Source: Verrucomicrobiota bacterium (GTDB taxonomy: Bacteria > Verrucomicrobiota > Verrucomicrobiia > Verrucomicrobiales > DEV007). From it: 64,000 bases of DNA. This document shows positions 42,001-45,000 of this stretch, piece by piece; the stretch's first letter is position 1; every line of letters starts with the position of its first letter. The stretch spans positions 14,383 to 78,382 of the forward strand of contig JASFYY010000078.1 in the NCBI GenBank assembly GCA_045046875.1, in the 5' to 3' direction. The position numbers are program-made.

Positions 42001-45000
42001 CCCCAGTCGAGTTCGACGATGGCATCCCCGCGGAAGCCGAGCGGGGTTTTGCCCTGGAACCGTTCGTGCGGCATGCGCGGCACATGCAGGTCGTGTGAGG
42101 CGAAGAAGAGGAAGAAGGGTTGGTTTTTATTGGCTTCGATCCGCTCGACTGATTTCTCGACCCACTTGTCGGTGAGGTCTTCATCGCGGAAACGCGCGGC
42201 GTGACCACCGGTGTAAAACCCGATGCGGCTGATGCCGTTGTGAATGGTTGAGTTGTGTCCGTGCGACCAGTCCATTTTCAGGGTGTCGCGATGGCTGATA
42301 CCGGTCGGGTGATCCGGGCTGGGTTTTTTCTTACCGACCCACAGCGGGTCCTTGGGATCGAGATTGAGAACCCGGTGGTTCTCGACATAAACCTGGGGCA
42401 CGCGATCGTTGGTGGTGGGTAGGAGGAAGTTGTAGTCGAAGCCGATTTCGCGTGGTCCGGGTTTGAGCTCACCGTTCCAGTCAGGACCTGCTTTGCCGCC
42501 GAGTCCAAGGTGCCATTTGCCGATCACCGCGGTTTGGTAGCCTGCCTTTTTGAGCAGATCTGGCAAGGTGAAGGTGTCGGGAGGAATGATCAGCGGGCTG
42601 TTGGGGGCGGCGATGCCCTTGCCTTTTTCGCGGAAAGCGTAGGTGCCGGTGAGGAAGGAGAAGCGGGTAGGGGTGCAGGTCGAGGCCGAGCAGTAACCGC
42701 TGGTGAAGCGTTGGCCCTCGGCGGCGAGCCGGTCGATGTTGGGGGTTTTGAGCGCGGTGGCACCGTAGCAGGAAATGTCGCCGTAACCGAGGTCATCGGC
42801 CATGATGACGATGATATTGGGTTTGTCCTGGGCGGAGAGAAAATGGGTGGCAGCAAGAATCAGGCCGCAGATAGTGAGGGATAAACGCATGGTCGCAAAG
42901 CTAGCGAAAGGTGAGGGGAATGCAATTAACGTGATTGCGGAGTGGGGTTTATGTCCCGGCGGCGGCGGAGGAAACCGATGGCTCCGAGCACGGTTACGGC
43001 GAGGGCGAGAAAATGGTAGCCGCTGAAGGGGCCGAGAATACGCGGGGTGGAGCGGATGAATTCGTGGCCGAAGCGGAACAGGCCGTAAGAGATGAGGTAA
43101 AGATGGAAGTGTTGGCCGGGCAGGAGTTGTCGTCGGCGCATGAAGAAGAATATGGCGGCGGCGGTGAGATTGAAAACTAATTCAGCGAGCGGGGCGGGCC
43201 AGCGGGGGATTCCAGATTGGTCGTTTAGAGTGAACCAGGCTGGGCTGCATTTTATCCCCAGGCAGCAGCCGTGTACGAGGCAGCCGATGCGACCGGCGGC
43301 GATGCCGAGCGGCACGGCGCTGGCAAACCAGTCGCCGGTGGGTTTGGCATAACCAGTGATCCATTTGCCGAACTCAACTCCGGCGTATCCGCCGAGCAAA
43401 GCGCCGAGGACGGTTTTGCCGCTGGCGAGGTAAATGAGGAAGTGAGGGTCGCTGCGGTAGAGCCAGCTTTCGGCTGCAAGGTAGCCGATTTTTGCTCCGG
43501 CAAAAGCAGCGACGATGCCGAAGGCGTAGATTTGCATCAGGCGATGGTCATCGCGGAATTTTTTCGACCACCACAGCGCGCCGAGCAGGATGCCGCCGAG
43601 CATGATGATGAGGTAAACCGGGCTGCCGTTGCTGAGAATCTGGTGCCGGGTCATTTTTAAGCAGAGCTGCAGTCGGAAAATCCAGAATAATAACGGCAGA
43701 AGGAATCGAGCTTGCCATCCGGCCGGATGACATGAGTGCAGCAGCGGTCGATACGGTCGTCGTCCCAGCTTTGCGCGTCCATGAAGGGTTTGATCAGCAG
43801 GCGGAAGGTGTGCGATGCGGCGAGCTCGAATTGTTTGAGCAGCGCGCCGAGTGGTTCGGAATCGCAGCCGCAATTTTCTAGATCTTCGAGTCGGTAGCGT
43901 AGGCGGTCTGAGAGGAATCCCTGCACTTCGCTGAAATCAACGAAGTCGCTGATCGAACGGATTTGGCCGTTGATTTTGAGTAAATAACCGATGGTCGCGC
44001 AGTTGGGATCACCGCAGGGCAGGGGAGTGAAGTCGGCGCTTTTGAGTTGTCCTTGCGATTGTTCGATCGCAGAGAGGATAATGTCAGCGACGTTGAGATG
44101 AGGCGCTGGCTCTGCGTTTTCATTGGCAATGCGGCCGCTGCCAAACATGGGTTGAAAGCTGATGCCGCGCACATGAGGGTATTGCAGGCCAAATGAAATG
44201 CTGTCCCAGATTTGGTTAAGGTTATCAGGGATGACCGTCATGGCTAGAGTGACGGGTAGCTTGATTTGCTCGCAGCGCTCGATGGCGAGTTGTTTGATTT
44301 TGCGTAAGTCGGCTCCGCGCAGGGTGTGGTGACCGGTTTCTCCCGGACCGTCGTATTGTAAATAAATCTGCATGTGTCCGCGTTTCACCGCGGTGCCAAG
44401 TTGTTGTAAAAAATGGTCGTCTTTGGCGATTAAGAGGCCGTTGGTATTGATCAGGATGTAATCGATCTTGTCATGAGCGTTAGCCCATTCGAGCAATTCG
44501 AAGAACTGCGGGTGTAGAGTGGGTTCACCGCCGGACAGTTGCAGGATTTCGATGCCGCCTTTGCGTGCGATGACTCCTGAGATGCGGGTTTTGATCTCAT
44601 CGAGGGGAACGGCATCGACCGGACCGGTGAGGGAATCGGCAAAACAAGTGGGGCATTTGAGATTGCATGAATTGACGATTTCGATCAGGGCGACACAGGT
44701 GGAGAGGCGTTCGAAGGCGGCGGTTCCGGCGGAGGAAGGACTGTTGGTTGCGCAGCAGGAGCCGCTGTCGCAGCACTCATCTTTCGTGGCTGGCGAGCCG
44801 TGTGATTCCCAATAGAATTGGGAATCGGAGCTGAGCAGAGTCCATTGATCACCGTGATCGGGGCAGCTTCGTTTCATGAAAACCTGTGAGGGGGCTGCGC
44901 CGGACAACCAGACTTCGGCTGCGCATGAATCGTGGCATTCGAGGCAACGACTGCGGGTGGATTTGAGTTGCCGGGTGAGCTTGGGTGGGGTGGGTTCCAT

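Follow-up and report, generated by a model that had tools for sequence, protein, structure and literature searches.

What does a bacterium make with a relative of the archaeal tetraether lipid synthase (Tes/GDGT-MAS) when the gene for this radical SAM enzyme (rSAM) is coupled to that of a shortened Lgt paralog (mini-Lgt)? In the window, i.e. the whole stretch of 64,000 nucleotides that we analysed, both genes were translated along with two small open reading frames (ORFs) upstream of them on the same strand, and the four genes are listed below in the order in which they are read.

45441-45779, minus strand, small membrane protein paralog 1 (112-aa ORF, translated)
45014-45358, minus strand, small membrane protein paralog 2 (114-aa ORF, translated)
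43657-45000, minus strand, rSAM gene P0001 (447-aa ORF, translated)
42926-43654, minus strand, mini-Lgt gene P0002 (242-aa ORF, translated)

We tentatively read the four genes, from 45779 to 42926 on the minus strand, as one cassette with three components. The stop codon of paralog 2 lies 13 nt ahead of the rSAM start codon, and the TAA stop of the rSAM is followed by “aa” and then by the ATG of the mini-Lgt, which gives the 2-nt gap between the rSAM and a 242-aa Lgt paralog that the genome-wide survey’s note had described and that translation of both ORFs confirmed. Exactly two proteins in the whole genome matched the LGT family, namely the mini-Lgt (88 bits) and a 319-aa canonical copy on contig C19 (212 bits), so that the note was also right about a normal Lgt elsewhere in the genome, and realigning the two proteins returned the value it had reported (27% over 96 residues). 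Scanning positions 41000-46500 for promoters and terminators was uninformative: 4 promoter-like sites turned up where 3.6 were expected, and the minus strand had no terminator. The sulfatases that start 36 nt past the mini-Lgt were considered as further members and excluded from the unit, since a cluster of this kind does not recur among the 80 related loci described below. A role in anti-phage defence was likewise set aside, as the one PADLOC hit was partial (rSAM core to pVip, 38 bits) and the other three proteins had none.

P0001 contains the Pfam domains Zn_ribbon_HMPTM (PF23545, 39.6 bits with a cut-off of 27) and Radical_SAM (PF04055, 56.3 bits), and its best solved relative is the Methanocaldococcus jannaschii GDGT-MAS (7TOL, E 1.7e-37, residues 12-335 and 393-438), with an identity to MJ0619 of 26% according to the survey’s note. 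Its AF2 model (pLDDT 81.4) was matched by Foldseek to 7TOL with an E-value of 6.4e-32 and a TM-score of 0.76 over 498 columns, while the next-best fold reached a TM-score of 0.40; the match takes in the zinc-ribbon or rubredoxin-like domain, the radical SAM barrel and the C-terminal cluster domain, i.e. the whole GDGT-MAS fold. The N-terminal domain is of the Cys3His zinc-ribbon or rubredoxin-like type. Across 27 rSAM sequences the CxxxCxxC motif (C112, C116 and C119 in P0001) is invariant, and C102, C329, C334, C420, C421 and C435 are kept in at least 90%. The scores against curated models place the protein elsewhere: P0001 reached 168.7 bits with the Tes model NF045702 (equivalog cut-off 450, a level also missed by all of its 90 nearest full-length representatives) and 234.9 bits with TrsS (NF045646, cut-off 490), its top NCBIfam model. 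Being below both cut-offs, P0001 belongs to neither Tes nor TrsS. In a tree of 83 rows all Lgt-linked loci fall into one half together with two natural fusion proteins (SH-aLRT 86), and a control within Chloroflexota found an upstream LGT gene at 2/2 genes of the same type as P0001 (clade A) versus 0/14 of the other type (clade B). The Lgt pairing is thus limited to the clade of P0001 itself. Judging from the model and the tree, P0001 has the complete GDGT-MAS fold yet is not a Tes orthologue and sits in a clade of its own; “bacterial Tes homolog”, the term used in the survey’s note, holds for the fold and is too broad as a family assignment.

Like the rSAM, the mini-Lgt stays below the curated model of its namesake. 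P0002 scored 88 bits with Pfam LGT (PF01790, cut-off 24.9) but 41.1 bits with the Lgt equivalog TIGR00544 (cut-off 118.9), for which three other mini-Lgts gave 31-77 bits and the canonical Lgt of the same genome passed with 179.6 bits. Seven transmembrane (TM) helices are predicted, without the periplasmic head insert, and the AF2 model (pLDDT 86.4) shows seven long helices whose sole PDB match at E ≤ 0.001 is E. coli Lgt (5AZB, E 7.9e-5, TM-score 0.56). A HMMER comparison with 5AZB and an alignment of 67 rows indicated that R143, G154, Y235, R239, E243 and R246 (E. coli numbering) are kept; among these, R143, Y235, R239 and E243 correspond by alignment to the residues with which E. coli Lgt binds the head group of the phospholipid. 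H103 is missing, and the positions of N146 and E151 are both occupied by cysteine (GRIGCLVHGCCLG). With a single exception, every aligned mini-Lgt has cysteine in place of N146, and the periplasmic end of TM4 shows a C-x4-C-C or C...D-H motif; at the positions of N146 and E151 the pattern is CC in the PVC phyla and C...D in others, including the two mycobacterial loci L074 and L085. Compared with the nine conserved Lgt residues given in the available part of a recent preprint (bioRxiv 10.1101/2025.03.27.645668), P0002 is changed at three, and because H103, N146 and E151, which are regarded there as important, are all replaced, it may not be the same kind of transferase.

The strong link between the two genes can be read from their distribution. 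In a sample of 201 genomes from the order, the same 45 have both rSAM and mini-Lgt, 156 have neither and none is discordant (the carrier share was 144/883 in the survey’s note). In 39 of the 45 carriers the pair lies on one contig and strand, at most 5.1 kb apart. A same-strand mini-Lgt was found within 3.4 kb of the rSAM in 63/80 related loci, distributed over Verrucomicrobiota, Planctomycetota, Saccharibacteria, Chloroflexota, Gemmatimonadota, Actinomycetota, Bacillota, Bacteroidota, Acidobacteriota and Pseudomonadota, and where the two were not adjacent the mini-Lgt was present elsewhere in 5/5 such genomes checked. Chance cannot account for such figures: with one LGT gene per genome, a same-strand neighbour no more than 6 kb away would be expected at ~1/1000 loci. 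A sample at the phylum level contained no rSAM at E ≤ 1e-50 in 120 other genomes and is therefore uninformative on linkage. Two of 12 long representatives scanned are natural fusions of LGT, zinc ribbon and radical SAM domains (P0267 and P0319), both with the LGT domain at the N-terminus, an order consistent with a mini-Lgt that ends in the cytoplasm. Two further candidates were rejected, L043 because its translation revealed a stop codon after the rSAM and L049 because it is merely an overlapping long frame. The counts of LGT genes and small ORFs were made with HMMs and a motif detector, as ORF clustering was swamped by shadow ORFs and the greedy gene call on the neighbourhoods still mis-picks some ORFs; the only clusters common to many loci were the rSAM and LGT, the next largest being an opposite-strand shadow ORF. 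Taken together, the coupling of the genes, the co-presence across 201 genomes and about ten phyla and the two fusions support the rSAM and the mini-Lgt as one functional unit that is gained and lost together. The survey’s note had likewise read the two as one unit; our samples point in the same direction as the co-location it gave for the two families (4,506 of 14,887 genomes), and its statement that the papers on the subject leave the pairing unmentioned agrees with our literature search, in which we found no published mention of an Lgt-rSAM pairing.

What the unit acts on is a separate matter. The reading in the survey’s note amounts to a free-lipid pathway: the rSAM would be a tetraether or membrane-spanning lipid synthase, and the mini-Lgt would pass it a diacylglyceryl lipid or take one from it. 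The small proteins upstream would then be accessory or irrelevant. The full GDGT-MAS fold of the rSAM, the phospholipid-binding residues kept in the mini-Lgt, the fusions and the perfect co-occurrence are all compatible with such a pathway, and according to the available text of PMC8941075 a role in making brGDGTs has been proposed for bacterial Tes homologs. Against it, P0001 stays far below the Tes model (168.7 versus 450 bits), and the clade that leans towards Tes is precisely the one devoid of Lgt (0/14). Tes also acts alone on free archaeol lipids, according to the same part of PMC8941075, and the portion of the literature at hand describes it as working alone when expressed in M. maripaludis, whereas none of the 201 genomes has a member of the P0001 clade but no mini-Lgt. 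The distribution is patchy even inside the genus (2/5 genomes), which better suits an accessory trait than core membrane architecture, and the cassette is found in Saccharibacteria. Saccharibacteria are not known to synthesise lipids themselves. The free-lipid pathway moreover leaves the small proteins with their invariant cysteine unexplained, and we consider it unlikely. The functional unit is what endures of the note’s interpretation; its Tes label was too broad, and the small Cys-proteins had been missed.

These small proteins form the third component. Paralog 1 has three hydrophobic helices and a C-terminus reading ...SFGGC-IIAIS, whilst paralog 2, likewise a 3-TM protein, ends in ...GIGGC-LIGSF. 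At E ≤ 0.01, Pfam and NCBIfam yielded one faint line for paralog 1 and otherwise nothing, no annotation was found for the small ORFs, and a word-based search for homologs of the 114-aa protein returned 6 candidates, none of which scored, and hence no relatives. The family was assembled instead from neighbouring ORFs at related loci: both paralogs align with upstream small ORFs of 9 such loci, with G108 and C109 invariant and P30 invariant or nearly so. When the genome was searched with a profile of this alignment, these two ORFs alone were retrieved, at 99.5 and 99.3 bits, and the score after them was 12 bits. A detector requiring a small ORF on the same strand, with a hydrophobic stretch and with a small residue plus Cys near the C-terminus, identified 64 ORFs in 42/80 related loci against 4.2-6.3 expected (Poisson p ~2e-41). 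With these strict settings 38/80 loci lacked such an ORF, some of them being cut contigs or variants with I/V at position −1. In the order sample the small Cys ORF was present in 32/38 loci, mostly ending 0-70 nt ahead of the rSAM and frequently repeated in tandem (2-3 copies). Their position is conserved to the same degree as that of the two enzyme genes, and the three components travel together.

The conserved cysteine is C-terminal and does not follow an N-terminal signal peptide. Its typical box reads F/I/V-G/A-G/A/S-C and is followed by 4-19 mostly hydrophobic residues up to the C-terminus; among the 64 cassette ORFs, F occupies position −3 in 24, and Gly occurs at −3 to −1 in 43, compared with 65/196 in the background. 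The box differs from the canonical lipobox [LVI][ASTVI][GAS]C, as defined in the available text of PMC12462473, which matched 3/64 cassette ORFs and 24/196 background ORFs. Variants were seen in two Saccharibacteria loci, where the C-terminus is GGW without a Cys and a G-F-G-T/S-C box lies in the first helix, and in some Planctomycetota copies, which have a fourth helix past the Cys. Eight small proteins carry an N-terminal zinc ribbon before the three helices, from which we infer that the Cys-bearing helix probably runs in-to-out, with the Cys at its outer end. A complex predicted for the mini-Lgt and the 114-aa protein scored 0.01 (mark 0.32) in a run without controls, and gives no verdict on binding. 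The invariant cysteine shifts the likely substrate of the unit from bulk lipid to a protein cysteine, with paralog 1 as a candidate lipid acceptor.

Tandem, hypervariable small genes next to an rSAM with extra cysteine clusters are also what one would expect if the small proteins were RiPP-like precursors, cross-linked by the rSAM (e.g., through a thioether) and lipidated or exported by the mini-Lgt. SPASM/twitch maturases form thioether cross-links in peptides, and the peptide maturases SkfB and SuiB and CteB-like enzymes are among the second-tier fold matches of P0001, although they cover the rSAM core only (TM-score 0.33-0.40, versus 0.76 for GDGT-MAS). The small proteins are polytopic with no visible leader/core organisation, their conserved Cys is predicted to be periplasmic and thus remote from a cytoplasmic rSAM, and the neighbourhood lacks a conserved protease or transporter, none having appeared in the ORF clustering of the 80 loci. 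We therefore regard a RiPP-like system as very improbable. Less remote, if still doubtful, is a different membrane substrate such as a polyprenyl, a quinone, a cofactor-like lipid or canonical lipoproteins, in which case the small proteins would be subunits, scaffolds or regulators that share a Cys-Cys disulfide or a metal site with the mini-Lgt. The cysteine at the N146 position and the TM4 motif could form such a site with the small-protein Cys, the superfamily is diverse in function (true TrsS proteins come as fusions with NTP-transferase, AMP-ligase and methyltransferase domains), and the residual lipoprotein labelling seen in M. smegmatis without MSMEG_3222 was attributed to the N146C paralog MSMEG_5408 in the accessible part of that literature. 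Tandem and fast-diverging small proteins in which only the Cys box is fixed nevertheless resemble a substrate family rather than a stoichiometric subunit, and the head-group arginines of the mini-Lgt are kept.

Weighing these readings, we lean with some reserve towards a dedicated protein-lipidation system as opposed to a bulk pathway for membrane-spanning lipids. The mini-Lgt, working in the outer leaflet as Lgt does, would move a glyceryl lipid from a membrane phospholipid to the Cys of the small protein. The Tes-like rSAM would be located on the cytoplasmic face of the mini-Lgt, to which it is fused in some organisms. It would be unable to touch the cysteine itself, because the one is presumably cytoplasmic and the other periplasmic; by analogy with Tes only, it may instead direct 5'-deoxyadenosyl radical chemistry at the end of a lipid tail, which is unactivated. 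What would result is a small protein whose lipid anchor has been remodelled, e.g., tail-coupled, macrocyclic or membrane-spanning. In its most explicit form, the Lgt paralog would lipidate a near-C-terminal Cys and the rSAM would weld one tail to a second, from the same anchor or from the opposite leaflet, to yield a covalently protein-bound macrocyclic or membrane-spanning lipid in about ten phyla, lipid-scavenging Saccharibacteria among them; we offer this full scheme with low confidence. The results point to a mode of protein lipidation, with remodelling of the attached lipid, for which we found no published description.

If correct, a protein-lipidation role would provide a function for a large bacterial branch of Tes/GDGT-MAS that is now counted among the “bacterial Tes homologs” when producers of brGDGTs are sought. 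As a marker of tetraether synthesis, the Lgt-linked clade is probably unsuitable, an issue that bears on the attribution of paleoclimate proxies to their source organisms. Such a role would also mean a lipidation route with an F-G-G-C acceptor motif near the C-terminus, invisible to lipoprotein predictors. The system is open to direct testing, since there are cultured, non-pathogenic carriers (Chthoniobacter flavus, Pedosphaera parvula, Roseibacillus, Paenibacillus, Fictibacillus, Hymenobacter and Pedobacter).

Among the known systems, TrsS (NF045646) belongs to the same superfamily as P0001, whereas its true members (14/90 scanned) occupy the other half of the tree and are in several cases fused to domains of the DVU_1551, DVU_1553 or DVU_1556 families and not to LGT; no match to the DVU_1551-1556 families was found among 11 proteins neighbouring the cassette. 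Thermotoga Mss is a bacterial radical SAM enzyme that couples fatty-acyl tails (Sahonero-Canavesi et al. 2022, as cited in the available text of PMC13459092), and by that description alone it resembles the tail-coupling chemistry suggested for the cassette lipid, while differing in that this text mentions neither an Lgt partner nor a Cys-protein. GDGT-MAS/Tes (MJ0619; 7TOL/7TOM; NF045702) shares with P0001 the zinc-ribbon or rubredoxin-like domain, the CxxxCxxC core and the Cys-rich C-terminus in the same order, although the identity in the structural alignment is 24% (the top bacterial Tes homologs of Zeng et al. have 40-42% identity to MA_1486, in the part of that study at hand) and residues 336-392 of P0001 stay unaligned to 7TOL in the sequence search. 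A constant mini-Lgt partner, present at every occurrence in the 201 genomes, sets the P0001 clade apart from a Tes that is described, as far as the source extends, as self-sufficient on free archaeol lipids. E. coli Lgt (5AZB/5AZC; PF01790; TIGR00544) has the 7-helix fold of the mini-Lgt along with R143, Y235, R239, E243 and R246, and its acceptor Cys, like the one predicted for the cassette, comes after small residues where an in-to-out helix has its outer end; the mini-Lgt is ~75 residues shorter and lacks the TM4-TM5 head insert, and the acceptor is L-A-G-C after a signal peptide in the one and a candidate F-G-G-C near the C-terminus in the other. The closest parallel to the changes at N146 and E151 is found in bioRxiv 10.1101/2025.03.27.645668, the available text of which describes distant Lgts with CD or CC at these two positions, among them MSMEG_5408 with N146C, and treats this CC/CD-type as low-activity Lgt variants (“radical” has 0 occurrences in its main text). 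On residue pattern, the mini-Lgts share these replacements with the CC/CD-type including MSMEG_5408, and the proposed lipidation system would, if true, explain why paralogs of that kind, regarded as weak copies of Lgt, exist.

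Four consecutive minus-strand ORFs of the window very probably form a single functional cassette, comprising two genes for small membrane proteins, the gene for a radical SAM protein (P0001) and the gene for a paralog of prolipoprotein diacylglyceryl transferase (Lgt; P0002, hereafter mini-Lgt), separated in that order by gaps of 82, 13 and 2 nt. The genome-wide survey's note had read the last two as a unit that remodels free lipids with a homolog of the tetraether synthase Tes, and all of its factual statements open to checking were correct, among them the 2-nt spacing and the Pfam assignments. 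The features are:

45441-45779, minus strand: small membrane protein of 112 aa, ORF, first of the four
45014-45358, minus strand: small membrane protein of 114 aa, ORF, second of the four
43657-45000, minus strand: P0001, radical SAM protein of 447 aa, ORF, Pfam Zn_ribbon_HMPTM and Radical_SAM
42926-43654, minus strand: P0002, mini-Lgt of 242 aa, ORF, Pfam LGT
41361-42890 and 39696-41333, minus strand: two sulfatase-family genes, the first starting 36 nt downstream of the mini-Lgt gene
within 37615-42890, minus strand: 694-aa right-handed beta-helix protein with a choice-of-anchor Q domain, by family match

The sulfatase genes and the beta-helix protein did not recur across 80 related loci. 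The stretch at 45000-45999, which holds both small-protein genes along with the spacer towards ndk, has a G+C of 0.435 against 0.55-0.59 in the radical SAM and mini-Lgt genes. The cause may simply be coding rich in Phe/Ile/Leu, or the small genes may have arisen more recently. At 46454-48157 (minus strand), a gene for the tRNA methyltransferase MnmM (220.7 bits, cut-off 135) adjoins one for an MnmC1-like FAD oxidoreductase (81.5 bits, under cut-off), the pair being the MnmC pathway in split form, and BirA-like and NadC genes come after it.

The sole close solved relative of P0001 by sequence is 7TOL (GDGT-MAS, Methanocaldococcus jannaschii; E 1.7e-37), and the AlphaFold2 model of P0001 (27 relatives in the alignment, pLDDT 81.4) matches it with a TM of 0.76 over 498 columns, the next fold being SkfB at 0.40. 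We take MJ0619 to be the tetraether synthase, going by the titles of 7TOL and 7TOM; Lloyd et al. 2022 is reported to have identified it as such. Relatives of P0001 conserve a Cys3His zinc ribbon, a CxxxCxxC motif and several C-terminal cysteines. Judged by the curated models, P0001 is no Tes orthologue, scoring 168.7 bits on NF045702 (Tes, cut-off 450 bits) and 234.9 bits on NF045646 (TrsS, cut-off 490 bits), and among the nearest 90 full-length cluster representatives none reaches the Tes cut-off, whereas the one for TrsS is passed by 14. Some of these 14, several in number, carry fused domains of the DVU_1551, DVU_1553 or DVU_1556 families; P0341, P0372, P0374 and P0377, representatives from the true TrsS clade, are fused to a DVU_1556 methyltransferase, a DVU_1551 NTP-transferase (with or without an HD domain) or a DVU_1553 AMP-ligase, so that another branch of the Tes superfamily, the TrsS clade, likewise has an unexplained set of partners of its own.

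P0002 was modelled by AlphaFold2 (pLDDT 86.4) as seven long helices, with E. coli Lgt (5AZB) as its sole significant PDB match. The E. coli Lgt residues R143, G154, Y235, R239, E243 and R246 are kept and H103 is replaced; unlike the genome's own Lgt, P0002 is without the TM4-TM5 insert of ~50 residues. Cys occupies the N146 position in 65 of 66 aligned mini-Lgt rows and also the E151 position in the PVC phyla (G-C-x4-C-C), with a C...D-H-T-Y-G variant in other phyla. As the earlier note had reported, a normal Lgt is encoded elsewhere: the genome has one further LGT-family gene (319 aa, on a separate contig), which passes the NCBIfam Lgt equivalog model with 179.6 bits (cut-off 118.9 bits), whereas P0002 fails with 41.1 bits, and the two proteins align at 27% over 96 residues only, as also stated there. 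In the accessible text of a 2025 preprint on Lgt diversity (10.1101/2025.03.27.645668), distant Lgts are noted to have 'CD or CC' in place of N146 and E151, MSMEG_5408 of M. smegmatis is given as N146C with presumed low activity, and a radical SAM partner goes unmentioned.

To assess linkage, aligned relatives of P0001 were used to scan a single genome for each species, and the best 80 loci, which span about ten phyla, were kept. A mini-Lgt profile match lies on the same strand within 3.4 kb of the radical SAM gene in 63 of them, downstream in Verrucomicrobiota and Planctomycetota and upstream in Bacillota, Bacteroidota, Actinomycetota, Acidobacteriota, Gemmatimonadota, Saccharibacteria, Chloroflexia and Proteobacteria. 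On this profile the linked genes reach 58-389 bits and the window genome's own Lgt 29.9 bits; at the sequence level, the linked LGT genes are distinct from housekeeping Lgt. Eight of the 17 loci without a match end early on the expected side and nine have full flanks; a mini-Lgt was found elsewhere in all five genomes searched of these nine, and two of the other four loci (L050 and L052) fall outside the Lgt-linked clade. Among 201 genomes of the window's order, which include kin and are not independent, so that we give counts without a statistical test (thresholds E ≤ 1e-50 for the radical SAM protein and E ≤ 1e-40 for mini-Lgt), an identical set of 45 carries both genes and 156 carry neither, and thus the two are gained and lost jointly. 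In 39 carriers the genes share contig and strand, within 5.1 kb, and in the other six they are on different contigs. The trait is patchy, occurring in 19 of the 45 genera of this sample and two of five genomes of the window's genus, and the radical SAM gene was found in 0 of 120 other genomes of a phylum-wide sample. P0267 and P0319, two of 12 long representatives scanned, are single proteins ordered LGT, zinc ribbon, radical SAM domain. Joint gain and loss and these fusions support treating the two genes as one unit; the note's reading overlooked the two small Cys proteins upstream. In the order sample, five of 46 mini-Lgt matches were flagged with one internal stop (three TAG, two TGA) and one radical SAM match with an internal TAA, which may mean that the match was extended too far at its N-terminus, or else decay or recoding.

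A quick maximum-likelihood tree of 126 sequences, midpoint-rooted and with archaeal Tes sequences absent, places every Lgt-linked locus and both fusions in one half (83 rows, SH-aLRT 86), the other half holding true TrsS, the best Tes-scoring representatives and three Chloroflexota loci without Lgt. As a control chosen without regard to Lgt, we took all Zn_ribbon_HMPTM genes in 81 Chloroflexota genomes plus extra paralogs of two genomes: the two genes with their better score on the profile of the Lgt-linked clade each have an upstream LGT gene, and no upstream LGT gene accompanies any of the 14 with their better score on the other-clade profile (four of these loci are short). By the tree and the control, the proposed pairing of a bacterial Tes homolog with Lgt, borne out in 63/80 loci and 45/45 carriers, thus holds for one clade only, which is the clade least like Tes. 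A Dehalococcoidia locus (L132, 3448-6273) has two tandem Zn-ribbon radical SAM genes of the Tes-leaning half with no Lgt nearby, and a third copy lies elsewhere in that genome. A free-lipid pathway, as first proposed, is unlikely because no clade resembles Tes less than the Lgt-linked one, Tes works without a partner (PMC8941075, in its accessible text), the trait is patchy and the Cys proteins are left unexplained.

The note had described the pairing as unmentioned in papers on bacterial Tes homologs, and we likewise found no paper linking the components among open-access papers and preprints, supplements excluded. Open-access papers pairing diacylglyceryl transferase with tetraether concern archaeal envelopes, as far as their listing tells, and those combining radical SAM, diacylglyceryl transferase and paralog are, in the text available, unrelated to the cassette. 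The accessible parts of a 2026 review of lipid-modifying radical SAM enzymes (PMC13459092) do not mention Lgt or lipoprotein, nor do those of Zeng et al. 2022 (PMC8941075) mention operon, gene cluster or synteny.

The two small proteins are paralogs with three hydrophobic helices each, ending in ...GIGGC-LIGSF (114 aa) and ...SFGGC-IIAIS (112 aa), and have no family match in Pfam, NCBIfam or PADLOC. Similar same-strand small ORFs adjoin the pair in distant phyla; they are unalignable between phyla and share a Cys that follows small residues where a hydrophobic helix ends. A detector for this feature (length 50-260 aa, a Cys no more than 20 residues from the C-terminus, G/A/S/T at -1, and hydropathy averaging at least 1.2 over the 14 residues before that Cys) found 64 ORFs within 2.5 kb of the pair in 42 of the 80 loci, against 6.3 expected from the whole-genome rate and 4.2 from the opposite-strand rate of the same loci. 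At least one such ORF was detected in 32 of 38 order-sample loci, fetched without regard to small ORFs, and two further loci have a small ORF with I or V at -1, as do the Actinomycetota copies; the order-sample ORFs mostly end 0-70 nt before the radical SAM gene, often in two or three tandem copies. In an alignment of 11 Verrucomicrobiota copies, the only invariant residues are a helix-1 proline and the Cys of the G-C pair, the preceding Gly being nearly so, and the alignment's profile found no third copy in the window genome. The pattern [FWLIVM][GASV][GAS]C fits 31/64 cassette-side ORFs against 32/196 background ORFs, with Phe the most frequent residue at -3. A canonical lipobox, [LVI][ASTVI][GAS]C, was ruled out (3/64 versus 24/196). 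In some Planctomycetota copies the Cys is followed by a fourth helix, and two Saccharibacteria MAGs (L046 1626-2021, L047 4669-5064) have G-G-W instead of G-G-C at the C-terminus and a G-F-G-T/S-C box in helix 1. Saccharibacteria are regarded as scavengers of their lipids, and the cassette's presence there is notable in itself. At L021, four tandem small Cys-protein genes lie between the radical SAM and mini-Lgt genes; this MAG is labelled Akkermansia muciniphila, a label that alone is no proof of the cassette in that species. A role of the small proteins as subunits, with something else as the substrate, is unlikely, and a RiPP-like system is very unlikely.

We tentatively favor a single mechanism, in which the mini-Lgt would attach a lipid to the small protein's Cys, and the tail of that lipid would be remodelled by the Tes-like radical SAM enzyme. 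Lgt has its N-terminus outside and its C-terminus inside, and acts at the outer leaflet. Helix 4 of the mini-Lgt is predicted to carry R122 (equivalent to R143), C125 and the H-G-C-C motif near its outer end, and the order of the fusions, LGT first and the cytoplasmic enzyme after, agrees with a cytoplasmic mini-Lgt C-terminus. Eight small proteins begin with a CxxC...CxxC zinc ribbon followed by three helices; the ribbon should be cytoplasmic, so we infer that the Cys sits where an in-to-out helix reaches the outer side, the position that the Cys has in a signal-peptide lipobox. In this geometry a cytoplasmic radical SAM enzyme would therefore be unable to reach the Cys, and lipid tails can lie within its reach.
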